Shown here: positions 6,847 through 63,514 of the stretch, one piece after another
How positions within the stretch are numbered: position 1 is the stretch's first letter
Layout of the letters: the number at the start of each line of letters is the position of its first letter
Virus record (IMG/VR): IMGVR_UViG_3300045988_060496
Location: 114,625 to 178,624 of that record
Strand: one strand, 5' to 3'
Source of the DNA: a virus
Length of the DNA stretch: 64,000 bases
Notes under the pieces: model-generated
The model's input: only the letters and a program-made list of their open reading frames with translations
Told to the model about the DNA's origin: nothing
Database searches by the model: none
Translations under genes and position numbers: made by a program

Positions 6847-7315
6847 CTACAACATATTTTAAAATTTCGTAACTTTCTTCTAAGCCTGCTCTATCATCCA
6901 GTAAAATATTATAATAGGGCTTTTTAGAATTTGGGAATAGTCTACTACTTGTAAAGGGAGGTATGATCATATCATTGATAAGATTCCCTACCCTCATTTG
7001 AACACACTCCACTTGTTTCTCTATAATTTTATCTTCATCTTCTTCAGTGGAAAATAAAATCATTTCAAAACCTAGCATAGTACAATGTCTCAATAAGTTG
7101 ACGACACAACTATAGTCTCCTCCATTATTATGGTAGTCAAAAATAGTGTTATCATAATCGAAAGCGACTATTAGCTTTCCATATTTCTTGTACTCTTCTA
7201 ATAGTCGCTTCTTGCAAGCCTCTTTTCCAAATGGATGGTTAAAACTTTCCATAAAGCCCTTCATTAATCCGCTGTCTAATTTCTTTAAGAGTGTACTCCT
7301 TTTTAAGGACGCCAT
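6824..7315 (-). CDS. HAD-like hydrolase (possible); true start probably internal Met near 7264
   Basis: IVAFDYDNTI resembles HAD motif I DxDxT; 77-nt overlap with upstream gene suggests a later start. Confidence 0.35.
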   Translation of the reverse strand: MASLKRSTLLKKLDSGLMKGFMESFNHPFGKEACKKRLLEEYKKYGKLIVAFDYDNTIFDYHNNGGDYSCVVNLLRHCTMLGFEMILFSTEEDEDKIIEKQVECVQMRVGNLINDMIIPPFTSSRLFPNSKKPYYNILLDDRAGLEESYEILKYVVDEIIKLN

Positions 7316-8801
7316 CTTCGAACACAGTCTCTAAGCAGCCTCCGCTTTCTACCTCAGGAGTTACCTGGTCTTCAGCATAGTAAACGCCATTAACGTCCTG
7401 ATAGACAGCAATTAGACCTTTAAGAGAATTTTTAGTTCCATCATCTGTTTTAGGATGTTTGAATATTTCTTTCAATTCTCCATTAATTACACAAGCAGTA
7501 GCCTTAATTGCAAATCCTAAGCTATCTCTACTTGCATACTGATATGAAAATGAACCTACTCCTAGAACAAGATTGCAAGCTGCCATATGAGCATTCTCAA
7601 GTCTCATGTAGATTTGTTTCTGACGTTCAAGAGTGATAGAATCACCATACAACAAACCTATTTTCGTACTAGGATAGCGATAATCCTTAGAAGTAGTATT
7701 CCATCCAAAAATCTTACCAAGCATATAATAAGCACCGTAGTATTGACCTTCTGAAACTTCTACATACTCAGCATCATCGTTAAATGGGGCATAGCAACAA
7801 TAATACTTACCCTCTTTCATCCTGGTATGGAAGTGGGGATTAGTTCTCAGCCCACAAATAATATCAACAGGGTCTCCGCTATCTGGACGAATAACTACAC
7901 GTCCATCACGAGCCATAATATCCTTCTTTAATTTGGGAAGGAAGTTTTCAATAACATTCCAGAAGTCCCAAGTATCAGAAACTATAGAAACGAACCCAGA
8001 TGGATACAATTCGTTAATTAATCGCTTAAAGGTTTGAAGTTCATCCTCTTCTCCACCAGCACACATTACAGAATGTTCTGTAGCTGGAACAGTGGCGGCA
8101 ATTAATTCATTGTCAGAATTTGCACCATAATATTCTTCTAGAGCAGCAATAGCTGGAATGGTCTCACTTCCAACAAACGAAGTCATATGTGCCATACCAG
8201 AAATGATAGCGGCCTCTAAACCAGCCATTCCTCTCATAGAGAAGTCATGACACAAGAAATCCAGATTTACATCTTCTGGAAATCCAGTATGTACTGCGTG
8301 TCTTTTAAGTTCATTCTTATAGAGTCTTGCTCTAGTAGCAGAGGTGCAAGGCATCCACAGAGTACAACTAATCAAAGTCTCTAAATAATTAGTTAACCAG
8401 AAGAACTCTGACTTTGTATTAGTAATAGTCATCATAGGAACCCTAATAGGACACACTGAACCTTCTGGCAACGCTTTAATGCGAATGGGAAGATAACCTA
8501 AATCATACAAGGCTTCAATATGTTTATATCCTACGGACTCAATTCCCACGAAGTTATGAACTCTTCGATAAAACATTTCTACAGCTTTCTCTTTGGGCAA
8601 TCCAAAGAAATTCTTGTTAAATTCGTCAATCAAATACCTTTTAATTAAGTACTGGATTCCGAATACTACAGAACCTTCAGTGGCTTCTGGAAAGTATTTG
8701 TTGCTTCTGGGAGTCCAATTACTGTAAACTTGTTCAGTACCTTCTGGGTACATTCTGTGGTGGCCCAATTTATAGCCATCTGTTGCATTAATTATTTCCA
8801 T
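7239..8801 (-). CDS. nicotinamide phosphoribosyltransferase (NAMPT/NadV) family protein
   Basis: N-term INATDGYKLGHHRMYP (cf. TDSYKVTHYKQYP), DFSMRGMAG, VPATEHSVM, VSDTWD, RPDSGDP: type II PRTase NAMPT signature set. Confidence 0.75.
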   Translation of the reverse strand: MEIINATDGYKLGHHRMYPEGTEQVYSNWTPRSNKYFPEATEGSVVFGIQYLIKRYLIDEFNKNFFGLPKEKAVEMFYRRVHNFVGIESVGYKHIEALYDLGYLPIRIKALPEGSVCPIRVPMMTITNTKSEFFWLTNYLETLISCTLWMPCTSATRARLYKNELKRHAVHTGFPEDVNLDFLCHDFSMRGMAGLEAAIISGMAHMTSFVGSETIPAIAALEEYYGANSDNELIAATVPATEHSVMCAGGEEDELQTFKRLINELYPSGFVSIVSDTWDFWNVIENFLPKLKKDIMARDGRVVIRPDSGDPVDIICGLRTNPHFHTRMKEGKYYCCYAPFNDDAEYVEVSEGQYYGAYYMLGKIFGWNTTSKDYRYPSTKIGLLYGDSITLERQKQIYMRLENAHMAACNLVLGVGSFSYQYASRDSLGFAIKATACVINGELKEIFKHPKTDDGTKNSLKGLIAVYQDVNGVYYAEDQVTPEVESGGCLETVFEDGVLKKEYTLKEIRQRINEGLYGKF

Positions 8802-9659: not shown

Positions 9660-10483
9660 TTGTTATTAGCTACGTCTTTAAATAAGGTGGGAACCTGACC
9701 ATAAGTAGGAAGTTTTCCGTCCCACTTCTTAATCATATCCTGTTGAACTATGAGAACTGACAAAGATGCTGAAATTTTTCTATTATATTCAGCTTCTGCA
9801 TCACCCTTAATCTTAAGAGCTTCTGCTTCTCCTTGTGCAGCCGCCACTTTCTTTTTAGCTTCGGCCTCAATAGTCTTAACTTCATTCTCTGCCTTCAAAG
9901 CCTGTTGAATTGCAGCATTCTTAGCATCAATAGAATTGACTAGCGTCTGTGGATATTGAAGACCAGAAGTCATTTGTTCAAGCTGAAAATTCTCAGCCAA
10001 GAGTTCCTTTGACAGTCTATCTTCTATAGACTTCTCAAACTCCTCACGTTTACTTACTAGTTCATCAGTAGTATAGTTATTTAGCTGAATACGAAAAGCA
10101 TTCTTTACGTAATTGTACAAAGTAGTGTTAATTACCTCTACAATATCTTCCTTTCTATACTTCTTAAATACTTCTGGTGATTTCCCGTCAACAATCTTCA
10201 AAGAAATTGTAGGGTCTACAGTAAATGATGACCCATCTTTAGCATTAATACTGAAAGGAGGATAGTCCACAGTCTGTACGAATGTAGGATATTCATATAC
10301 AGCCGTAGTAACAGGATTGTACCATACCGCACCAGTAACAAGAGACACATCGTCTACTCCTTTACCATCTCCGTATAGATTTACCTTGATGCCTTCATAA
10401 CCAGCATCAATTCTCTCATAGCCACAACTAGATAAGCCAAACACTAAAGTTAATACACACAAAATCTTAATAATTGTCTTCAT
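9656..10483 (-). CDS. SPFH/band-7 family lipoprotein
   Basis: Lipoprotein signal ...LSSCG; SPFH-like core (GYEGIKV...TAVYEYPTFVQTV) plus Ala/Glu/Lys-rich helix. Confidence 0.5.
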   Translation of the reverse strand: MKTIIKILCVLTLVFGLSSCGYERIDAGYEGIKVNLYGDGKGVDDVSLVTGAVWYNPVTTAVYEYPTFVQTVDYPPFSINAKDGSSFTVDPTISLKIVDGKSPEVFKKYRKEDIVEVINTTLYNYVKNAFRIQLNNYTTDELVSKREEFEKSIEDRLSKELLAENFQLEQMTSGLQYPQTLVNSIDAKNAAIQQALKAENEVKTIEAEAKKKVAAAQGEAEALKIKGDAEAEYNRKISASLSVLIVQQDMIKKWDGKLPTYGQVPTLFKDVANNK

Positions 10484-10679
10484 TTTCCTTATTTAAATAA
10501 TGTTTCTTAATATATTTGAATATCCTATAAACTAAACTTGGGATTGCCACTAGTAATAGTAACAACCCCAAGATATTTGCAGCATACAATGATTCGGATA
10601 ATAACCATAAGCTGATGTTGTAAATTACAACGATTAATAGAACGGCAACAAATGCCTTAATTAAGTTTTTCTCGACCAT
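10467..10679 (-). CDS. small membrane protein
   Basis: 70-aa ORF, two TM-like segments. Confidence 0.4.
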   Translation of the reverse strand: MVEKNLIKAFVAVLLIVVIYNISLWLLSESLYAANILGLLLLLVAIPSLVYRIFKYIKKHYLNKENEDNY

Positions 10680-10920
10680 AGAATAATATATTCTCTATTG
10701 CCGCTTTTATTATACCATAGTAGTACATTATCCTCTGTAATATCTACATACGGGTCATAATAAATATACGCGGCAAACATTATGCACACAATTATAAACG
10801 CAATCATGATTTATCGAGTTTTAATAGACCCAGGTCTGGTAGTTGCAGCCTGAAAGTCTTTTCCTTGTTTATCCCACCATGCTTGCTTTGCTTTTAACCA
10901 AGCTACTTTTTTCTTATACT

Positions 10921-31010: not shown

Positions 31011-32984
31011 TTACTTCACTTCTTCAAACTCAGTTGTTTCAGCTTTCTTCTCCTCCAACTCTTTCTTGCCGAGAACACTTTTCAGTGTATCAGCGAAAGG
31101 TATAGAGCGAAGCAAGTCGAACGCAGGATTCAAGTTCTCAGCAGTTTTAGCCATGAAGTTACCAGCGGTATTCTCGTTACCATAAACAGTAACCTGTCCA
31201 AGGTGAACGTGTTCAAACATCTGAGCAGATGCTTCTGCAATACCTGTCAACTGGTCAACTGTCTTGTACTGAACCACCATTTCAGGAGTCAAGCCAGATT
31301 CAATCATCTTCTGGACTGCCAGAGCAGGAGCCATTTCAATAGCCTGGACTTTATCAGCCTCAGCCATCAAAGATGCTCTCTTACCCTCAGCTTCAGCAAG
31401 CAGTTTCTTTCTTGTACCTTCAGCTTCGGCTTCTAGCTGCAACTTTGTAGCATTCGCTTTAGCTTCTGCTTCTTTCAGAATTTCAGCAGCCTTAGCTTCT
31501 GCTTCAAGTACAGCTTTCTGCTTAACAGCTTCTGCCTCAATCGTAATACGTTCCTTTTCTTTTTGGGCAGGAACAATCGTCTCAGCATGAAGCTTAGCTT
31601 CCATAGCCAATGCAGCTGCTTCGTTTACTTCCAGTTGCTTTTCTTGCTTAGTTTTCTCGATAGTCATTTGAGCTTCTACCTTAGAAGTTCCTGCTACCTT
31701 TTCAGCTTCAGCCTTAGCTTTCTCGGCCTCTCCCTTAGCTTTAGAGACTTCAATTGTGGCATTTTGTTCTGCCACTCCTGCAATCTTATCAGCTTCAGCT
31801 GCCTTTACACGCTTGTCTGACTCATACTTAGCAACTGCAGCTTCCTGTTCGTTAATTGCCTTTTGCGTCTCAGCTTCCTGTTTTTGTTTAGCCTGAGCAA
31901 TACGAGTTTGTTTCTCTGCTTCTGCTTCTGCTTTCTTAGAGTCAGCTTCTGCTTTAGCCTTAGCTACATTAGCCTCAGCCAGTGATTCAGACTCTGCTCT
32001 GTTAGAATCGGCTTCTGCTTGAGCTTTAGCTATAGCTGAAATTTTCTCAGCTTCTGCTTTAGCTTTCTCTGATTCCGCTGCAGTATTAGCTTTAGCAATA
32101 TTGGCAGCTTGTTCAGCTTTCTGATTAGCAATACCTGATTGCTTATTCTTCTCAGCTTCTGCAAGTTTGATTTCCTTCTCCTGGTTAATCTCTGCCACAC
32201 GAACCTCTTGCTCTTGTCTAGTCTGAGCAACAGTAGTTTCACGCTCTTTCTCAGCGTCTGCTACAGCAATTTCACGTTGCTTGTTGGTTTCTGCAATCTG
32301 AATATCTCCTTTCTTTTTCTCTTCTGCAATGTCAGCCTGTGCCTGAGCAAGAGCTTTAGTTGCAGCTTTCTGACCTAGATTCTTGATATAGTTTGCATCA
32401 TCCGAAATATCGGCATTGTTAATGTTGATAATACTGAAACCTACCTTATTCAACTCGGTCTCAATATTCTCCTTAGCTTTGCCGATAAACTTGATTCTGT
32501 CAGCGTTAATTTCCTCAATCGTCATCGTAGCCATCAAGCTTCTCACTTCACCAATGAGAATATCCTTGATTTGGTCTGAGATTTCAGAAGTTTTAGCTGT
32601 TAAGAATCTACTTGCAGCGTTTTGCATTAATGTTTGAGTAGTTCCAATACCAGTGGTCAATGTTACAGGAATAGTTACCTTAATCATTTGACTGGAAACA
32701 CCAGTAACATTTACTTGAATTTGGATAGGTTTCAAGGACATTTTAGCCCAGTCTTGGATTACTGGCATTACGAATGTACCTCCACCATGAATGATTTTGG
32801 ACGGCAGAATAACTTCCTCCGACTTTCCAGTCTTCTCGTTAACTACCTTCTTCTTACCAGCCTTACCAAACACAACCAAGATTTCATCACTGGCACACTT
32901 ACGATACCGTGACAAAAGTCCAATAAAGGTTAAGACTACTAGCAATACAATAACACCTGCTACAATAAGAGTTTCTGTTGTCAT
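31011..32984 (-). CDS. flotillin-like protein (SPFH domain plus long Glu/Ala/Lys-rich coiled coil; YqiK/FloT-like)
   Basis: N-terminal TM, SDEILVVFGK...SPFH core, then ~350 aa of EA/KA repeats typical of flotillin C-termini. Confidence 0.6.
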   Translation of the reverse strand: MTTETLIVAGVIVLLVVLTFIGLLSRYRKCASDEILVVFGKAGKKKVVNEKTGKSEEVILPSKIIHGGGTFVMPVIQDWAKMSLKPIQIQVNVTGVSSQMIKVTIPVTLTTGIGTTQTLMQNAASRFLTAKTSEISDQIKDILIGEVRSLMATMTIEEINADRIKFIGKAKENIETELNKVGFSIININNADISDDANYIKNLGQKAATKALAQAQADIAEEKKKGDIQIAETNKQREIAVADAEKERETTVAQTRQEQEVRVAEINQEKEIKLAEAEKNKQSGIANQKAEQAANIAKANTAAESEKAKAEAEKISAIAKAQAEADSNRAESESLAEANVAKAKAEADSKKAEAEAEKQTRIAQAKQKQEAETQKAINEQEAAVAKYESDKRVKAAEADKIAGVAEQNATIEVSKAKGEAEKAKAEAEKVAGTSKVEAQMTIEKTKQEKQLEVNEAAALAMEAKLHAETIVPAQKEKERITIEAEAVKQKAVLEAEAKAAEILKEAEAKANATKLQLEAEAEGTRKKLLAEAEGKRASLMAEADKVQAIEMAPALAVQKMIESGLTPEMVVQYKTVDQLTGIAEASAQMFEHVHLGQVTVYGNENTAGNFMAKTAENLNPAFDLLRSIPFADTLKSVLGKKELEEKKAETTEFEEVK

Positions 32985-34485: not shown

Positions 34486-34965
34486 TCAGCCAAATATACA
34501 AATCATTGAAGATATAAAGAATACAGCTCCTCCTACCACACTTGTCCAACCTCCAGCATCTTCATCGTTTTTGGATAGTTTTCCTCTACCAGTTAGTAGC
34601 ATAAATACTGATATTCCTAATAGTATGGTGCCTACTACAATTCCAGCTATCTCCTTATAGAGAAGTTTCCATACTACGATAGTTATTGCTGTTTGTCCCA
34701 AATTAGAGTCTGCTATTCTGATGGCGGAATCTTCAACTGCTTTAAGAGTTTCATTAACAGCCACGCCTATTTCCTTACCAAGGTTAGCATACTCAGAAAC
34801 TTCCTTGATTTCACCCTTTATAGCTTTCTCTGTTGTTATCTTCTCAATTTGAGTTCTAGTATCACTAGGCAACTTATCATAGTCTTCTTGTGATATAGTT
34901 ATCTGAGAAAAAGCTGCTACGCTCATCCAGAGCATAGCAAGCATAATTACAAGGAACTTTTTCAT
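34486..34965 (-). CDS. membrane protein with signal peptide
   Basis: MKKFLVIMLAMLWMSVAAFSQ plus C-terminal TM segments. Confidence 0.45.
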   Translation of the reverse strand: MKKFLVIMLAMLWMSVAAFSQITISQEDYDKLPSDTRTQIEKITTEKAIKGEIKEVSEYANLGKEIGVAVNETLKAVEDSAIRIADSNLGQTAITIVVWKLLYKEIAGIVVGTILLGISVFMLLTGRGKLSKNDEDAGGWTSVVGGAVFFISSMICIFG

Positions 34966-35525
34966 TAGTCAAGCCATTCAAATTCTTCACCCTTGAAATG
35001 TCTTGCAAAACAAGCATCGAACACTAGCTTTCCAAACTGGGTTGATACGTATTTGGCAATCTCTTCAGATTTGCACGCAAGCATCCCGACACTGGAATCG
35101 GCAAAGCCGACGCCAAAGTTAGAACTGAAACAGCCGAGACCCGCACAGCCGCCACTATTCGCGCGGCTGCCCACCAACGCGAATTTCTCGCCCTGATAAC
35201 GGAAGTGACCAATGACTTCTGCATCCTTCGGAACTGATTTCATTCTAAAGAAGCGAACCCAGGGATACCATATAGTACCAGTTAACAGATTGAACTTGTG
35301 ACCTTCATTTAGCGCATCCAAGACTGTCTGCAACTTAGCTAGAGAATTTACAGATCTATTGTAGTAAATAGTATCTCTAGTAACACACCCTAGATAGTTT
35401 ACAGCATCCTCATAGGTTCTTATCCGTCCCATAATGTTTTCTGGAACGATTTCAACATTGCCAGTTTCGGCATTATAGATGGGTTTATAACCATCTGGAC
35501 ATTCAATTTCAATTGTCTTTTTCAT
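34965..35525 (-). CDS. DGR target protein 2 (small protein with C-terminal variable repeat, probable C-type-lectin-like fold)
   Basis: C-terminal ...LVGSRANSGGCAGLGCFSSNFGVGFADSSVG is encoded by VR2 and is homologous to the C-terminus of the tail-fibre target at 60105..61922. Confidence 0.6.
   Translation of the reverse strand: MKKTIEIECPDGYKPIYNAETGNVEIVPENIMGRIRTYEDAVNYLGCVTRDTIYYNRSVNSLAKLQTVLDALNEGHKFNLLTGTIWYPWVRFFRMKSVPKDAEVIGHFRYQGEKFALVGSRANSGGCAGLGCFSSNFGVGFADSSVGMLACKSEEIAKYVSTQFGKLVFDACFARHFKGEEFEWLD
35085..35177 (-). repeat. DGR variable repeat VR2
   Basis: ~93 nt matching TR (62001-62098) in minus orientation with essentially all mismatches at TR adenines; locally GC-rich/A-depleted patch in an AT-rich genome. 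Confidence 0.65.
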
Positions 35526-35635: not shown

Positions 35636-36100
35636 TTATTCGAATAGCGGCAGCAACTTCTTTCCTAGTATCTTCACCGCTTTCTGTACATCAGCTACAG
35701 TTCTAAAATAAACAACACCTGGATATTTTACGTTTTGATGCATAACGACGTACACTCCTTTTATATCAGTTTCCGTCTTTCCAGATAGAGAAGAACCCCT
35801 TCCAAGAAAATAGCCAGTATTACCTTCTGTTTTGATCCATCCTTTATTTAGATAGTTAGCAACTATTTGTAAACTAGCTAGAGAACTGAGTTGTTCTGTC
35901 ATGCTTGGAGGACATACTAATGTATTCCAAAAACCATAATCTTCTTCAGACTCTACTATCTCTTTAAAGGAAGGAATTAGCATTTCCTCACTAAATGCAG
36001 TAAGAGCTAATTTCTTCAAGTCTTCATTACCGCTTTCATACCATTCGCGTGCCTGCTCTAAAGTTACCTCAAGATAGGCTTTTGTCTTAATTCTATTCAT
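35636..36100 (-). CDS. hypothetical protein
   Basis: 154-aa ORF. Confidence 0.45.
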   Translation of the reverse strand: MNRIKTKAYLEVTLEQAREWYESGNEDLKKLALTAFSEEMLIPSFKEIVESEEDYGFWNTLVCPPSMTEQLSSLASLQIVANYLNKGWIKTEGNTGYFLGRGSSLSGKTETDIKGVYVVMHQNVKYPGVVYFRTVADVQKAVKILGKKLLPLFE

Positions 36101-38420: not shown

Positions 38421-39380
38421 TTAAATCTTCTCTTCAGAGATTAGTGCGTTCCCACAAGTAATTCGGTCAGAATCTTCCTCCTTAGATGGAACAAACACTA
38501 TAACATCCCAACCTTCTTTCAATAAAGGTTGTTCAAAGCGACGATAAACGTCATAATCAGAGTATCCAGTTACCTGGAAACCATTCTCTATAGCAGAAGC
38601 TGTTTCATGTATAGGAGTGATTTTAACAATAAATTTCTCCCTATCAAATAGCTTTGACAATTCCTTCGCATCGAGAATAGTTTGTGAGGTTACTGGAAAG
38701 TTTAGAGTATACTTTCTGCCTACCGGCATTGGTAACTCGTCAGCCAACCGAGAAATTTGTGCTAGTGACAAACTCTTAGAGTCAAACAGCTCATTTCTCT
38801 GTTCATCGTCTGTAGAATTGATTGAAAACTGCAAGCCTGCTTCTCCATTGTAGAACTCATTTTTTATGCTACACCAAACCTGTAAGAAGTTTCCAAGCTT
38901 ATTATTTGCTTTCGGAAGCATCGTGGAAACTACTGGATGAACAGTTTTAGCTATTAACCCTGCAGACTTAACCATACCTCTGAGAGCAAGTCCAAATGCT
39001 AATACATTATCATTCCATGTTGGTTCTCCCATTCTAGCAAAGTGTACATTAAACCTGTCTGTTTCTCTGACACTTTCGCCTTCTATAATAGTTCGGATTT
39101 GTCTATCCATATCTTCTATAGAAGCATTTCCATAGAATCCAAACTTGGGAACATCACAGAATTTACAATGCATAGGACAACCTTTCTGGGTAGAAATGGT
39201 TGCAACCCACTTCTTACTAAGGTCAACTTCAGTATTAGCTACTCCATTAATCTCCTTAGTTAATCCTAGGAAATTAGCTTTGATATTGTTCTCCTTTCCA
39301 TAGTCTCCTACAGTTAAGAACTCTAGTCTATGTTCTGTATCAACATAGATTTTTCCTGTATGGGTTAATACTGTTTTCAT
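38421..39380 (-). CDS. radical SAM domain protein
   Basis: CPMHCKFCDV = CxxxCxxC 4Fe-4S/SAM motif near N-terminus of the 319-aa ORF. Confidence 0.55.
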   Translation of the reverse strand: MKTVLTHTGKIYVDTEHRLEFLTVGDYGKENNIKANFLGLTKEINGVANTEVDLSKKWVATISTQKGCPMHCKFCDVPKFGFYGNASIEDMDRQIRTIIEGESVRETDRFNVHFARMGEPTWNDNVLAFGLALRGMVKSAGLIAKTVHPVVSTMLPKANNKLGNFLQVWCSIKNEFYNGEAGLQFSINSTDDEQRNELFDSKSLSLAQISRLADELPMPVGRKYTLNFPVTSQTILDAKELSKLFDREKFIVKITPIHETASAIENGFQVTGYSDYDVYRRFEQPLLKEGWDVIVFVPSKEEDSDRITCGNALISEEKI

Positions 39381-52671: not shown

Positions 52672-54843
52672 ATGAAAGAGAAGGAATTAATAGACAAGAC
52701 AAACGAGGCTATTGCGGAACTTGTATATGATAAGTATGAGTTACAGAAAGCTTATAATTATTATAATGGTAAAAGAGATCCTGAATAGTTCCGTTATCTG
52801 GAAGAAAACTTCGGAATAGGTAGCCCCACTTCGGTAGAGTTTACGCCTTTATTAAAGAAACACGTAGATGCTCTAGTTGGAGAATATTTAGGAACTCCTA
52901 TACTTCCGAAAATTTCTTGCAAAGATTCAGATACTATCAGTAATATAACAAGAGAAAAATAGCTAGAAATAACCAAGGGAATAGTAAAGTTTTTGAAAGA
53001 CCATTTAAGTAATTCAATTCTTAAGTTTATTGATGGCAAGGATATTACTGATAAAGCTGTAAAGACTTAGTTAGATAAAATTATATAGGATATTGACCAA
53101 TCCTTTATTTCTCAATATGAAATTGCAGCTTAGAATATAGTACATTATATTATGCAATCCAGAGAAACCGATTTAATTACTAAGTTACGTTAGTTACTAA
53201 CAGACTTATTAATTACTGGTTATACATTCTTTAGAGTGAAATCATCGGCTTCTGGAACTAATATTGAAATAGAGGTATTAAACCCACTTAATACATTTGT
53301 TGATAGAAATCCAGAATCTCCATATGTAAGGAACTCATATAGAGTTGTAGTAAGAAAGTGGATGAGTAAGAGTTAGATTTTAGCTAAATATGGCAAAGAA
53401 ATATCTAGAGAAGATTTAAGAAGACTAAAAGATGAATGGCGAGCTGATGATTCAGCTGCTGTTTATAGAAGAGTATATGGAGATACTTGTACAGTAGTAA
53501 ATGAAGATTAGAATCATGAAACCATTCCCGGCTATCCAGACAATGAATATAGTGCTCATAGGTTCTAGTTAATCCCAGTCTATGATGTTGAATGGATTGA
53601 AACAGATGATGATTTTGTGATGTAGAGATACAATACTATCAGAATAGGAGAAGAGATATATATTCTTAGAGGATTAGACAAGACTGTTATGAGGTCTAAA
53701 GATAATCCCAACTTCTGTTCTTTATCGGTAAATGGAGTATATTTCTTAAATCGCTCTTAGTAGCCTTATTCTCTTATATTAAAATGTGCACATCTGTAGG
53801 ATAGATACGACTTATTAAACTATTATAGAGATAATCTAATAGCTAATAGTGGTACTGCTGGAGTTATTATGGATATGTCTCTGTTGCCTACCAACTTAGG
53901 AGTTAAATGGCCAGAACGAGTACAAAAATGGTTAGCTTATAAAAAAGGTGGTATCATGTGGATAGACTCAAGCCAAGAAGGTAGGAATGACGGACAGCAA
54001 GCTCCAAACTAGATATATAACGGATTTGATGATACCTTAAAAGCATAGGCTGTATAGGCTATTGAACTAGCTATTCAATCAGTAGAACAAACTACATCAT
54101 CAATAACTGGAGTATTTAGGGAACGACTTAACGGTATAGAAACTAGAGATGCAGTTACTAATATTAAGTAGGGAGTAGCTAACTCGTATATAGTAACTAA
54201 GCACTATTTTTAGCAGATGGATTTAATAACCTGCGAGATACTACTAGATAGTCTTAATTAGGCTAAAGTTACTTATAAGAAAGGATTAACTGGAACTATT
54301 ATACTTGGGGATAAATATCAACAGATATTCACCGCACTTCCTGAGTATTTTACTGTTACTGACTACGATATTCATATTACTGCTAGTTCAGAAGTGATGG
54401 AAGATTTATAGACTATAAAATCAATCATTCCAGAGTTCGTAAAAAGTCAACAGATGGATCCAGATATTATTTTTGAGGCTCTTACATCTAAGAGTCTGAC
54501 AGACCTTAAATATAAGGTTAAGAAAGCTGTTCAAGTTCGCAAAGAGGAAAATAATCAGCTTCAGCAACTACAAGAAAAATTAGAAGAAACCTCTCAATAG
54601 GCTTAGTAGTTACAGCAAGAATTATAGAAAGCTCAGCAAAAGATTGAAAGCTTAGATGAATAGAGACTGGGATTAGAATAGTAGAAGATGCAGTTAGAAT
54701 ATAAAGTTAACTGGCTTAAAGCTCAGTCTGATTCTACTTATAAAGATAGACAAATGGATATTGAAGAAAAAAGAACTGAAATAGAGTTGGCTTAGCTTCA
54801 TGATGGAAATCCATATAATGACAAAATAAGACAAATACATTAA
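52672..54843 (+). CDS. portal-like protein, TAG-recoded (723 aa)
   Basis: ATG 52672 MKEKELIDKTNEAIAELVYDKYELQKAYNYYNGKRDPE-Q-FRYLEENFG... open to TAA 54841-43 with >25 in-frame TAG; directly downstream of TerL; Gln-rich coiled coil near C-terminus. Confidence 0.45.
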
Positions 54844-54844
54844 T

Positions 54845-55573
54845 ATGGCAACTGGAACAATTGTATACAACAAAGATTAGTAGTAGATTTATCCTATCTC
54901 TGATGGGACAGTAATTATAAGTAATGCTTCCGGTTCTAAATCAAATGTAGAAGACGACTTAAAAAAATTATTTAAGTAGGTATCAGATTTATCCGGTTCA
55001 AGTGAAGCAGTTAATAGTATTATTATTAAAATACATTATCTCCCTGCTAATACTGCCGATGAATCTGAAATAAAACTATCAAGTAAGTAGTGGTCTGATA
55101 CTTTTGAGCTTCCAACAGAAGAGAATCCATATATATGGAAAAGAACTAAATTTACTTTTTAGGGAGCTGATGAATCATAGGGAACTACTATCTATGAAAT
55201 AGTAGCGAGTGATGTCTCTACTATTATATAGACTATATATACTAGAACCGAGGGAATAACACCAGTTATAGAGTATAAACAAAAAACGAATGAAAAAGGA
55301 GATCCTCTCTATATAGATTCTGACGGGAGAGAAACCACAGAAGTAACCTCTATTAAAGCCTATGACTATAACTACTACTGGAATGGACAGCCCTCCTCTG
55401 GGATTGATAAATTACCTCCTACTCCAGATGGATAGTCTTATACCTGGACTGACTATCCACAAGATATTAGTTTATCTTTTACTTCTGTTTTTATGTCTAG
55501 ACGTATAAAGCAATCTGGAAAGTGGGGACCTTTTTCTACACCAGCTCAATACGGTCAATGGCCTAACACTTAA
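54845..55573 (+). CDS. TAG-recoded structural protein (242 aa)
   Basis: MATGTIVYNKD-QQQ-IYPISDG... to TAA 55571-73. Confidence 0.45.
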
Positions 55574-60104: not shown

Positions 60105-61922
60105 ATGGCAGCAATCAAATCTATAAAGGTTGGGGAAACCACATACGATTTAAAAGCTACTTACGATGGTGCTGGAAATGTTATAGATACGACATATGCC
60201 AAAGCTAATGCAATTCCAACTAAAACTTCTTAGTTACAGAATGATAGTGGATATTTGACTGAGCATTAGGATATTAGTGAATTAGCTACTAAGGGTGAGC
60301 TTGAAGGCAAAGTAGATAAGGAGTTAGGAAAGGGACTTTCTGAAGCCAATTATACTGAAACTGAGAAGGAAAAGTTAAGTACTATAGCTAATAATGCTAA
60401 TAATTATGTACACCCAACTACTTCTGGAAATAAACATATTCCATCTGGAGGAGCGTCTGGATAGATGCTAGTTTTCTCAGCAGATGGTACTGCTGAATGG
60501 GCAGATTCAAGTTCTAAGCTAGAAGAGCAATTTACAGCACTAAATGAGGCTTGGGAAGAATTGTAGAAGGCACAACAAAAGCTTGATAAGTAGGTTACTG
60601 AGCTAAATAGTAATATGGATTTATATTCCTATGGAGTAGAATGGGATGTTACAGTAGCATCTCCGGAACTTACTAGAATAGGTAATCCTTTGTTGCATAA
60701 ATCTCTTCCTATTCAGTCAGCGTATAGAGGTTGTGTAGCAAACAATGATGTAGTAAATTACTATCTGTTTCCAGATGACTGGTCTTATAAAGAAGACGGC
60801 GAAACTCCATCTGTCTTAGATGGAACTGATGGAACAGTAAGAGTTAATACTCCTAAATTTTATGGAAAATCTGGCAGCGATGGAAACAAAAGATGGGTTA
60901 GAACTTCTACTGTCAAAATTGATGATTCATGGGTAGAAATTCCTGAACTATTAATAGATGCATACAGAAGTACAGTTGATACCACAGTCTCCGCAACTCC
61001 AAAAGCTGTATCAGTAGTTAATACTACTACTGCATTTAGAGGTGGAGGAAATAGAGCTAACTACGATGATTATCTAACTACAGAATTAGAAACTAAGGAT
61101 ATATTCAGAAGTGATTTAGGAAAGCCTAGAACTAATATTTCTAGAGCTACTATGAGAACATATGCAACAAATGCTGGTTCAGAATTGCTATGCTATGAAT
61201 ATTACAAATGGATATTCTACTGGAATTATGTCATTGAATATGCTAATTTTAATTCTTAGGCTGCATATAATGCAGAGTTAACTGCAGATAGATATCATCA
61301 AGGAGGTTTAGGATCTGGAGTTACAGATTGGGCTAACGCAGCTACAAGTTGGTCAGGGTATAATGCAACATATCCACTTACACCTTGTGGTTACTGCAAT
61401 GAACTTGGTAACTTCACTGGAGTAAAAGATTTAGTTATTCCAGAATGTACAGCTCAAGATGGCACAAATACAGTAGCAACTCATACATTTAAAGTACCTC
61501 GCTGGAGAGGATTCGATAATCCGTTTGGAGACATTTGGACTAACCTGGACGGAGTAGTTATAATGAGAGCAGCTGCTAATGAGATTAGCACTGTCTATAC
61601 AACTACTAACATATCGGAATTTACAGACGTAGTTGGAGAGAAAACCGTTGCAGGATACGAAGTAGCATCGGATGGTTATATTAAGGCATTTGACTTAGGT
61701 GAAACCGCTGAAATAATTCCATCCGCTGTTGGAGGAAGTGCTACTACTTATATTTGCGATTACCATTACTGCAACGCAAGCAGCACAGCGCTTCGCACGC
61801 TGCTGGTGGGCAGCGGCGCGGCTTATGGCGGCGATGCGGGTCTCGGCTGTTTCTATTCTTACTATGGCGTCGGCAATGCCGATTCCGTTGTCGGGTTCAG
61901 GACTCTGAATAGAGTATCTTAA
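60105..61922 (+). CDS. DGR target 1: tail-fibre/receptor-binding protein with C-terminal variable repeat (605 aa, TAG-recoded)
   Basis: Frame 0 from ATG 60105 through track ORFs 60615.. and 61563.. to TAA 61920-22; C-terminus ...ICDYHYCNASSTALRTLLVGSGAAYGGDAGLGCFYSYYGVGNADSVVGFRTLNRVS is encoded by VR1. Confidence 0.6.
61800..61897 (+). repeat. DGR variable repeat VR1
   Basis: 98 nt aligning with TR; every VR/TR mismatch (about 20) falls on a TR adenine; GC-rich patch. Confidence 0.7.
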
Positions 61923-62000: not shown

Positions 62001-62098
62001 CTGCTAGTAGGCAGCAACGCGAATAATGGCAGCAATGCAGGTCTCAGCTATTTCAATTCTAACAATGACGTCAGCAATGCCAATTCCAATGTCGAGTT
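62001..62098 (+). repeat. DGR template repeat TR
   Basis: A-rich intergenic copy ctgctAgtAggcagcAAcgcgAAtAAtggcAgcAAtgcAggtctcAgctAtttcAAttctAAcAAtgAcgtcAgcAAtgccAAttccAAtgtcgAgtt between target gene and RT. Confidence 0.7.
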
Positions 62099-62239
62099 AT
62101 TATATATTTAGAAACATTTTATTATTTTTTTTTAGTTTGCTAAGTAATATCCTTGCCTCTAGGCAAAAGATAACGTAGTGTTGAATGAAGGGTGTTAGTA
62201 GGTTAATTCTCGAACGCTTCCGATGAAATATATAAAAAA

Positions 62240-63514
62240 TTGAAACGTGTAGGATATTTGCACGAGAAAGTATACGCTGAAGATAACATCGAACTAGCTG
62301 ACGATAAAGCTAGAAGAAATAAGTCTATTAGATGTGGAATCAAGCAGCATGATAAGAATAGATTAAAAGAAAATAAGGAATTATCCGATAAGTTAAGGGA
62401 TTTGATTTATCAAACCTCTGAATATAGTACCTTTATAATATACGAACCTAAAGAAAGATTAATCTTTAGACTTCCATACTATCCAGATAGAATAACTCAC
62501 CATGCTATAATGAATATTATGGAGCCTATTTGGACTAGTATATTTATAGACCAAACATATTCCTCTATACGAAATAGAGGTATTCATAAAGTAGAGTATG
62601 ATTTGTTCAAGGTGTTATAGAAACATCCAGAAGAAACAAAGTATTGCTTGAAAATGGATATAAAAAAATTCTATCCTTCTATAACTCACGACATTTTATA
62701 CGAAATGTTATAGAGAAAGATAAAGGATAAAAAACTATTAAAACTGTTGAAAGAAATAATTTATTCAGCGAAGGGAGTTCCTATTGGAAATTATCTATCA
62801 CAATTCTTTGCAAATTTATATCTGACATATTTTGACCACTGGGTAAAAGAGGAGTTAAAATGTAAGTACTACTTTCGATATGCTGACGATATTGTGATTC
62901 TTGGTAATGACAAGAATTATTTGAGAAATGTATTAGTATCTATAAAACTATATTTGAAACAGGTTCTTAACCTAGAGTTGAAGCCTAATTATCAAATATT
63001 CCCTGTAGAAAGCAGAGGTATTGATTTCGTAGGCTATAAATTCTATCATACTCATGTTCTACTGAGAAAATCTATAAAAATGAGGATGTTTAGGCTTATA
63101 AATCTATATAAATAGAATAAGATTGATAAAGATGAATTGAATAGAAGAATGAGGTCTTATTTTGGATAGATGAAATTTTGCAACTCTAAGAACTTGCTGA
63201 GAAAGGTAGAGGAGTTAACTGGATTGAAATTCTCTAACTGGAATGGAAAAGAAGTTAACATATCTAAGTTTTATAATAAATATATTCACATTGTAGAGGT
63301 TATTGATTATGACAATCATTTTCGAGTGCATTTCATGTATAACAATAAACCCTACTATTTTAAAAGTAAGAATAGGAGATTACACTATTCTTTGCTTAGA
63401 TACAAATTTCCTATAAATTTTAAAATAACACCTTATGTTAGAGCCGAATAGAATACAAATGGACGTTTATCCTTAGACAATCCAAAAACTTGGGAACGGT
63501 ACTTATTACTATAA
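62240..63514 (+). CDS. DGR reverse transcriptase, TAG-recoded (track ORFs 62240.., 62747.., 63170.. are one frame joined by TAG codons)
   Basis: YADDIVILG (RT YxDD box), RLPYYPDRITHHAIMN, IGNYLSQFFANLYL; all three track ORFs are in the same frame (offsets 507 and 930 nt); ends TAA 63512-14. The only in-frame start candidate found was TTG at 62240, so the 5' end is uncertain. Confidence 0.65.

Follow-up and report, generated by a model that had tools for sequence, protein, structure and literature searches.

A Small Protein Gene Remote from the Cassette Is Very Probably an Active Second Target of a Diversity-Generating Retroelement in a crAss-like Phage

We analyzed a stretch of 64,000 nucleotides of viral DNA (positions 114,625 to 178,624 of the IMG/VR record IMGVR_UViG_3300045988_060496; hereafter the window, in which position 1 is the first letter) that carries a diversity-generating retroelement (DGR). 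The element comprises a template repeat (TR), a reverse transcriptase (RT) gene and two variable repeats (VRs). VR1 lies in a tail protein gene (target 1), and VR2 lies 26.8 kb from TR, on the opposite strand, in the gene of a protein of 186 amino acids (target 2). Our comparisons make it very probable that the only DGR of this phage currently acts on VR2 as a second target. A layout with two targets is already known in other Bacteroidales phages, in which the same small-protein family is involved. What is new is the crAss-like setting, where RT and the tail target are amber-recoded and the second target keeps to the standard code, as well as the strength of the population evidence, including a natural TR marker found in both VRs.

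Repeat Architecture of the Element

The three repeats align without gaps over 92 nt each, TR and VR1 on the plus strand and VR2 on the minus strand (Table 1). TR contains 30 adenines among its 92 nt. VR2 differed from TR at 21 positions, all of which were TR adenines (21/21), and the non-adenine positions were identical (62/62). VR1 gave the same figures, with 21 mismatches in 92 nt, 21/21 at TR adenines and 62/62 identical elsewhere. Differences confined to TR adenines, which identify a DGR TR/VR pair, were thus found in both cases. An initial annotation of the window, made from its letters, had described a GC-rich patch as the reverse complement of TR, with mismatches falling almost only on TR adenines. 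Both statements held, and the repeat itself was recovered twice, by the alignment register and by a repeat search independent of the TR scan, which returned the inverted repeat 35085-35176 / 61804-61895. However, the limits first given (35085-35177 and 62001-62098) did not, the strict ones being 35085-35176 and 62005-62096.

VR2 is in frame within the open reading frame (ORF) of target 2, where it encodes residues 117-147 (LVGSRANSGGCAGLGCFSSNFGVGFADSSVG), and its variable adenines are found at codon positions 1 and 2 of AAY codons. The encoded peptide had been read exactly in the initial annotation; its placement at the C-terminus of the protein was wrong, as 39 residues follow it. Neither differences away from TR adenines nor a VR2 out of frame, the two outcomes named beforehand as fatal to the claim, was observed. 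The assignment of target 1 to the tail was also sound, the 605-aa product matching a tail protein family with a very low E-value (Table 1).

The GC content of VR2 is 0.62, compared with 0.45 in TR, 0.39 in the remainder of the target-2 gene and 0.36 in the window. This anomaly is due to adenine depletion of the VR, as had been supposed, the fraction of A on the sense strand being 0.10 in VR2 vs 0.33 in TR. A scan of both strands with TR, in which the A positions were ignored, found exactly three copies in the window and no third target. The DGR appears to have exactly two targets, since a degenerate VR pattern applied across the viral collection gave at most three copies per contig: no IMG/VR contig had more than TR, VR1 and VR2.

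Population Variation of the Two Variable Repeats

The activity of VR2 was assessed on 35 IMG/VR contigs carrying a full-length target-2 gene, with 69-95% protein identity, to which the window was added (36 genomes in all). The genomes of these relatives measure 185-192 kb. Outside the VR, 17 of the 35 relatives were near-identical (at most 3 substitutions), yet they differed at the same 11-12 residues within it. Entropy over the 36 genomes reached 1.30 bits at TR-A sites, with 0.07 at the other VR sites and 0.33 in the rest of the gene. The variation that the initial annotation had proposed to look for in VR2 is therefore present and essentially confined to TR-adenine sites, with 802 changes at A sites and 44 elsewhere; 35 of the 36 VR2 sequences were distinct, and 26 of the 36 kept all 62 non-A positions. 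VR1 behaved similarly in the relatives (24 distinct sequences out of 24; 509 A-site and 15 non-A changes). As for TR, it was found by scanning in 30 related contigs, and in 25 of them every available base was that of the window TR (22 of these copies being complete).

Synonymous (dS) and nonsynonymous (dN) divergence was estimated for the target-2 gene in eight pairwise comparisons. Outside the VR, dS was 0.2-1.4 and dN/dS 0.11-0.36, which shows that this part of the gene is under purifying selection. Within the VR, dS was 0-0.04 in five of the eight comparisons (outside-VR dS there 0.2-1.2), and dN was 0.22-0.39 in all eight. A near-zero dS combined with a high dN is what is expected from repeated overwriting off a conserved template.

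The clearest evidence is a natural marker transfer. In contig 3300045988_059915, TR carries a private T-to-C substitution at position 4 (T4C), and C4 is also found in the VR1 and in the VR2 of this genome. Directional transfer of information from TR to the VRs is thus seen in three ways, through the T4C marker, through an invariant TR facing varying VRs, and through the dS of the VR. Taken with the adenine-specific mismatches and the population variation, the low VR dS and the marker present in both VRs argue for the earlier proposal that one TR and one RT diversify two targets.

Eleven AAY codons are randomised, the hypervariable sites being codon positions 1 and 2. At the 21 hypervariable sites, the identity between VR1 and VR2 was 0.331 within the same genome vs 0.338 between different genomes. 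Sharing a genome does not make the two repeats more similar, and the targets are therefore rewritten and selected independently. At nine further TR adenines, nearly every copy of VR1 and VR2 has a G, which suggests common structural constraints on the encoded loop.

These data bear on the idea that VR2 is an inactive relic (an old duplication, a gene conversion or a former target) that is no longer rewritten. Decay does occur in some lineages: in four relatives (L019, L022, L031, and L035), VR2, located at about 10335-10445 of each locus, shows 4-14 non-A mismatches to the window TR, and no exact match to the TR probe was found in their contigs. In these relatives TR may have diverged, or the DGR may have been lost and VR2 may then have decayed. 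The lack of a recognisable homing element or hairpin, described below, would also fit a relic. However, in genomes that carry TR, the intact non-A positions of 26 VR2 copies coexist with a synonymous divergence of 0.9-1.4 elsewhere in the gene, nearly every VR2 is distinct, and a private TR substitution is found in the VR2 of the same genome. The relic explanation is thus already contradicted for this lineage, and we regard it as very improbable. Also, one relative (L009) has a deletion of 6 nt within VR2.

Repeats of this kind are known to confuse assemblers, and three related assemblies show oddities in TR or VR1 (L043, contig 3300045988_056908; L051, contig ..._059870; L039, contig ..._070909): two have TRs with partial VR-like A-to-G/T substitutions and one has a frameshifted VR1. 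Such oddities may result either from the assembler collapsing a TR and a VR that are 200 nt apart, or from real recombination. It is hardly conceivable, nevertheless, that VR2 itself is an assembly artefact in which VR or TR reads were chimerically placed in an unrelated locus, as each of 35 related IMG/VR contigs has an in-frame VR at the same gene position, and the flanking genes are conserved. Moreover, hundreds of protein clusters of other origin contain the VR, and a VR-like motif is conserved in distant members of the family.

Reverse Transcriptase and Homing Signals

The RT encoded beside TR is of the DGR type. It contains the motifs IGNYLSQ (GxxxSQ) and YADD (YxDD), and it matches RVT_1 (E = 9e-20) and the phrog_1423 reverse transcriptase family (E = 7.5e-112). 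Its frame opens past a TAA at 62204-62206, and the first in-frame ATG is found only at 62510, well inside the RT domain; the start is likely the TTG at 62240. Alternatively, RT may have a frameshift start at 62223, where an out-of-frame ATG precedes an A-run (ATGAAATATATAAAAAATTGA).

The homology ends with GTCGGG in every VR1 and VR2, the TR counterpart being GTCGAG, and one genome has a G-to-A change at TR position 90 that is seen in neither of its VRs. This pattern is compatible with, though no proof of, a short boundary resembling the initiation of mutagenic homing (IMH) element.

Several points weigh against an active VR2 or limit the case for it. Neither a (G/C)14 tract nor the GC-rich IMH-like element that the initial annotation had proposed to look for was found at the 3' ends of the VRs. 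For each VR and for TR, the 70 nt at and beyond the repeat were folded as DNA and evaluated against shuffled sequences, which gave no hairpin 3' of the VRs better than the shuffles (z = -0.2 for VR2; z = -0.9 for VR1). No Avd was found beside RT, there is no ORF between target 1, TR and RT, and the ORFs downstream of RT in a relative had no Avd-like match in Pfam. Also, the ongoing activity of VR2 is deduced from comparison between genomes. On the third point, Avd is not universal for DGRs, as it is reported to be missing from most zeta crAss-like DGRs (PMC12386605).

Recoding and the Proposed Diversification Cycle

The 23 tRNA genes detected in the window by ARAGORN include two with anticodon CTA, which flank the point where gene orientation switches. 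The minus-strand ORFs up to about 43 kb are intact under the standard code, and the block near VR2 contains tRNA genes, an SPFH/Band-7 protein, an AAA ATPase, NAMPT and a radical-SAM match that is weak and sub-threshold. From 48.9 kb onward, the large ORFs of the plus strand are intact only when TAG is read as sense, with 4-28 TAG per gene, and this recoded block includes the terminase, the portal, tail proteins, the 605-aa tail target and RT. Target 2 has no in-frame TAG, compared with 5 in RT and 6 in the tail target, and was thus rightly placed in the standard-code block by the initial annotation. The CTA tRNAs are presumably needed to translate RT and target 1, and not target 2; RT would be made only under active suppression because of its 5 in-frame TAG.

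We propose the following cycle. TR would be transcribed and copied by the adjacent RT into cDNA with adenine-specific infidelity, as in established DGR biology. As the sequence pattern of the repeats shows, this cDNA takes the place of the corresponding 92 nt of VR1, in the neighbouring tail-protein gene, and, independently, of the 92 nt in the distant 186-aa gene on the other strand (VR2); 11 AAY codons are randomised. Homing probably occurs late in infection, on genomes about to be packaged, and expression of the new target-2 allele, from the standard-code block, would probably follow in the early phase of the next infection. This order of events is suggested because RT and the tail target need suppressor tRNAs and target 2 has no TAG, and because target 2 sits among tRNA and auxiliary genes. 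The amber-recoded RT thus gives a prediction on the timing of diversification in the infection cycle.

For TerL, the named matches were Crassvirales proteins with 25-29% identity, and two unannotated contigs from human faeces were closer (43-46%). The features fit a position of this phage among zeta crAss-like phages such as ctoVY1 and cthgQ11, a placement that we infer from the 185-192 kb size of the relatives, the CTA tRNAs, the amber-recoded late genes and the RT type, which match the description in PMC12386605.

Comparison with Known Systems

The initial annotation held that distant trans targets are uncommon in DGRs, which is overstated. Phage-associated DGRs commonly have non-adjacent targets within 50 kb (Wu 2018, PMC5758913). 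In Quimbyvirus, the second target is located far from the structural module, in a defence-related island of the opposite strand (Benler 2021, PMC8008677), and the same layout was described in four species of gut prophages (Nature 2025, PMC12629997), with Benler cited for LoVEphage. Remote targets are missed by design in large surveys, as the large DGR survey of Roux 2021 was unable to detect them. Concerning crAss-like phages, the DGR papers that we found (alpha, epsilon, and zeta groups, including PMC12386605) describe only tail or receptor-binding targets adjacent to the cassette, and DGRs are not mentioned in Yutin 2021.

Among annotated phages, homologues of target 2 were found only in LoVEphage-type phages and in Bacteroides phage Versailles. 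LoVEphage (OY731433.1) encodes a homologue of 194 aa (54812-55396, +) with a VR of 113 nt, which differs only at adenines from an adenine-rich TR (70864-70752, -) located beside RT, about 15 kb away. A second VR is found in the gene adjoining the cassette, and the small protein is encoded among genes for methyltransferases, a Holliday-junction resolvase, a PAPS reductase and a tRNA ligase. LoVEphage and Quimbyvirus thus resemble the window in having one RT and one TR, an adjacent VR in the tail module and a distal VR in a small protein on the opposite strand, as well as in the surroundings of the second target, which are non-structural or counter-defence genes. In LoVEphage, this second target is homologous to the 186-aa protein (about 30% identity, same family). 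The differences concern the phage, which is crAss-like with relatives of about 185-190 kb in our case and a 71-kb temperate siphovirus-like phage for the LoVEphage type; the code, RT and the tail target of the window being amber-recoded and its second target being in the standard code; the distance to the second target (26.8 kb against about 15 kb); and its neighbours, which in the window are tRNA genes, the SPFH protein and a paralogous half-gene, unlike the methyltransferases and tRNA ligase of LoVEphage.

Versailles (ON453897.1) encodes a homologue of 193 aa (10181-10762), 33% identical to the window protein, between recombination and replication genes. Its VR matches a TR at 53832-53943, 43 kb away, with 15 differences at adenine sites and one other. 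As in the window, a tail protein with VR1 stands beside TR and RT, and the distal target belongs to the phrog_11581 family. However, the Versailles second target is on the same strand as TR and, as far as we found, it is not annotated as a DGR target in the record.

The zeta crAss-like phages of PMC12386605 share with the window a size of 183-189 kb, a GC content of about 35%, a CTA suppressor tRNA, and an RT with amber codons and the GxxxSQ motif. They are also mostly without Avd and have a tail-fibre target with a C-terminal VR beside TR and RT. Nevertheless, the targets in this paper are all tail fibres adjacent to the cassette, with additional TR-VR pairs in Lera and ct1yV3, and it does not mention a distal target in the replication/tRNA block. 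The prototype, Bordetella phage BPP-1, has the same adenine-specific TR-to-VR homing, AAY codons and C-terminal VR in a tail fibre. Unlike BPP-1, the window showed no Avd, (G/C)14 IMH or clear downstream hairpin, has two targets of which one is remote and non-structural, and contains an RT gene that needs stop-codon suppression. Tentaclin phage DGRs (PMC10743442) also hypermutate, with one DGR, two proteins of differing architecture. In tentaclins, which have been proposed to be adhesins, Ig domains come after an N-terminal C-type lectin domain (PMC10743442), unlike in target 2, which is a single unit of 186 aa with an internal VR and no Ig domains.

Taken together, these comparisons indicate that phrog_11581 proteins serve as the distal second DGR target in at least three unrelated lineages of Bacteroidales phages.

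Family, Fold and Possible Role of Target 2

Target 2 resembles the profile of phrog_11581, a family of unknown function, over its full length (E = 1.6e-16, residues 25-176). At a clustering identity of 50%, an exhaustive HMMER search of a representative set gave 230 clusters, and the proteins in nearly all of them are stand-alone and 150-220 aa long. The motif LVGGxAxxGxxxGLGxFxS...GxLxCxSxEIAxHxSKYF is conserved in the alignment, and the N-terminus of the family exists in two versions. The AlphaFold2 model built from the family alignment has a predicted local distance difference test score (pLDDT) of 91.3 and consists, in order, of an N-terminal beta-hairpin, three helices, a three-stranded sheet whose last strand begins the VR, a long loop and two C-terminal helices. 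No solved structure matched this confident predicted fold, and a sequence-profile search of the PDB with both targets gave no matches. Variable proteins of the C-type lectin (CLec) fold with a solved structure include Mtd, TvpA and TaqVP. Similarity to CLec-fold variable proteins was not found, a provisional negative, as the tail-target domain intended as its positive control was modelled poorly.

We see about an even chance that target 2 is an intracellular binder of variable specificity, acting in phage-host or phage-phage conflict, and not a receptor-binding protein of the virion. This reading is favoured because of the early-region location in three lineages, the lack of a signal peptide by eye and the small size of the protein. 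Alternatively, target 2 could be an accessory component of the virion, a receptor-binding protein or adhesin whose gene happens to lie apart from the structural block, in which case the DGR would diversify two host-recognition proteins. The 31 residues encoded by the VR do correspond to those in the tail target, and nearly all copies of both VRs have G at the same nine adenines, which suggests the same local binding-loop structure; the Versailles homologue is annotated as 'tail protein', and the tentaclins (PMC10743442) are an example of a two-target phage DGR in which both targets are proposed binders. We nevertheless consider an adhesin unlikely. The gene is found among early, replication or counter-defence genes in the three lineages, it is free of TAG unlike the large plus-strand ORFs from 48.9 kb with their 4-28 TAG each, and it has no apparent signal peptide. 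The names in Versailles were assigned by HHpred against PHROGs, and 'tail protein' may then reflect the VR motif. Finally, hhalign aligned the two targets only over 36 VR-encoded residues, and homology between targets 1 and 2 beyond the VR was consequently rejected.

Some points also limit the intracellular-binder reading. The proposed role is drawn from gene neighbourhood, codon usage and the signal-peptide criterion, and the early-versus-late timing from recoding. No match in Pfam, NCBIfam or PADLOC was obtained for target 2, its homologues or longer members of the family. In addition, some family members seem to be undiversified, and the scaffold would therefore also have a DGR-independent role. 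This is the case for a member of 206 aa (L104-L106, 10001-10618), identical in three samples and without a GC-rich patch, and for the homologue of the Suoliviridae crAss-like phage cr53_1 (L120, 3691-4059), truncated to 122 aa and without VR signature. No TR was found within 10 kb of other family members.

A bolder version of the intracellular-binder reading, which we hold as rather doubtful, is that phrog_11581 proteins are a dedicated scaffold distinct from the C-type lectin, possibly a new fold, used as an intracellular 'adaptive binder' that is re-randomised late by the tail-fibre DGR and deployed early in the next infection against variable factors of host defence or of competitors. Its users may be Bacteroidales phages ranging from temperate siphovirus-like phages to crAss-like phages of about 190 kb. 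If true, DGRs would be a counter-defence diversification system of phages, beyond tropism switching.

The present case shows that, in an abundant lineage of gut phages, hypermutation of a small protein of the early region is as intense as that of the tail fibre. The recurrence of the family as a distal target points to a conserved function for a non-structural protein that is diversified. For the function of target 2, cultured Versailles and LoVEphage-type prophages offer tractable systems.

Neighbouring Genes and Other Features of the Window

The coordinates of the features discussed are collected in Table 1.

Table 1. Positions in the window of the DGR components, their targets and neighbouring features.
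Feature	Positions	Strand	Basis
VR2, remote second DGR target site (very probable)	35085..35176	-	A-only mismatches; population entropy
TR, non-coding, between tail-target gene and RT gene	62005..62096	+	three-way alignment
VR1, adjacent variable repeat, C-terminus of tail protein	61804..61895	+	A-only mismatches; diversity in relatives
DGR reverse transcriptase gene, 5 in-frame TAG, start codon uncertain	62240..63514	+	RVT_1, phrog_1423
Target-1 gene, 605-aa tail protein, TAG as sense (6 in-frame)	60105..61922	+	phrog_5302 'tail protein', E = 6e-82
Target-2 gene, 186-aa stand-alone protein, phrog_11581 family	34965..35525	-	ORF; phrog match; AlphaFold2 (AF2)
Neighbouring 154-aa ORF, upstream of target 2	35636..36100	-	hhalign probability 90%, E = 1.4e-6; hmmsearch E = 2.6e-6
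Downstream 159-aa protein	34486..34965	-	start overlaps target-2 stop (TAATG)
Suppressor tRNA, anticodon CTA	41733..41803	-	ARAGORN
Second suppressor tRNA, anticodon CTA	44175..44247	+	ARAGORN

The 154-aa ORF upstream of target 2 has the N-terminal module of about 90 residues of the family (EWYxSGNxxLKxLAL type), with another C-terminal half and without VR, and it looks like a half-paralogue of the target-2 family. It lies beyond a tRNA-His from target 2, and this synteny is kept in 32 relatives. The downstream 159-aa protein shows, by eye, a hydrophobic N-terminal stretch (signal peptide) and hydrophobic C-terminal stretches (membrane-spanning). Its gene is present in 34 of the 36 related loci and is not found beside the LoVEphage or Versailles homologues. 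It was considered as a conserved membrane-protein partner of target 2 and rejected, being conserved only within this clade.

A radical-SAM-like gene (38421-39380, -) with a weak sub-threshold Pfam match is located a few kb from the target-2 gene. Radical SAM proteins are also annotated near the family gene in Versailles and LoVEphage (L067, 11378-12385; L068, 9582-10499). This proximity may be fortuitous, both genes lying in early regions of Bacteroidales phages, or it may reflect true linkage.

The cumulative GC skew has its minimum at about 43 kb, and its sign changes where the divergent gene blocks meet. Speculatively, if this minimum were a bidirectional origin, VR1 and VR2 would have the same orientation relative to fork movement, and an antisense cDNA could then pair with the lagging-strand template at both VRs.

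The NAMPT gene is full-length (7239-8801, -; Pfam NAPRTase, E = 8e-34; phrog_448, E = 4.5e-182) and represents an auxiliary gene of NAD salvage. Lastly, the SPFH/Band-7 gene (657 aa, ORF 31011-32984) contains three direct repeats spaced by 66 nt (31887-32105, -), with 60-70% identity, which encode a segment rich in alanine, glutamate and lysine.

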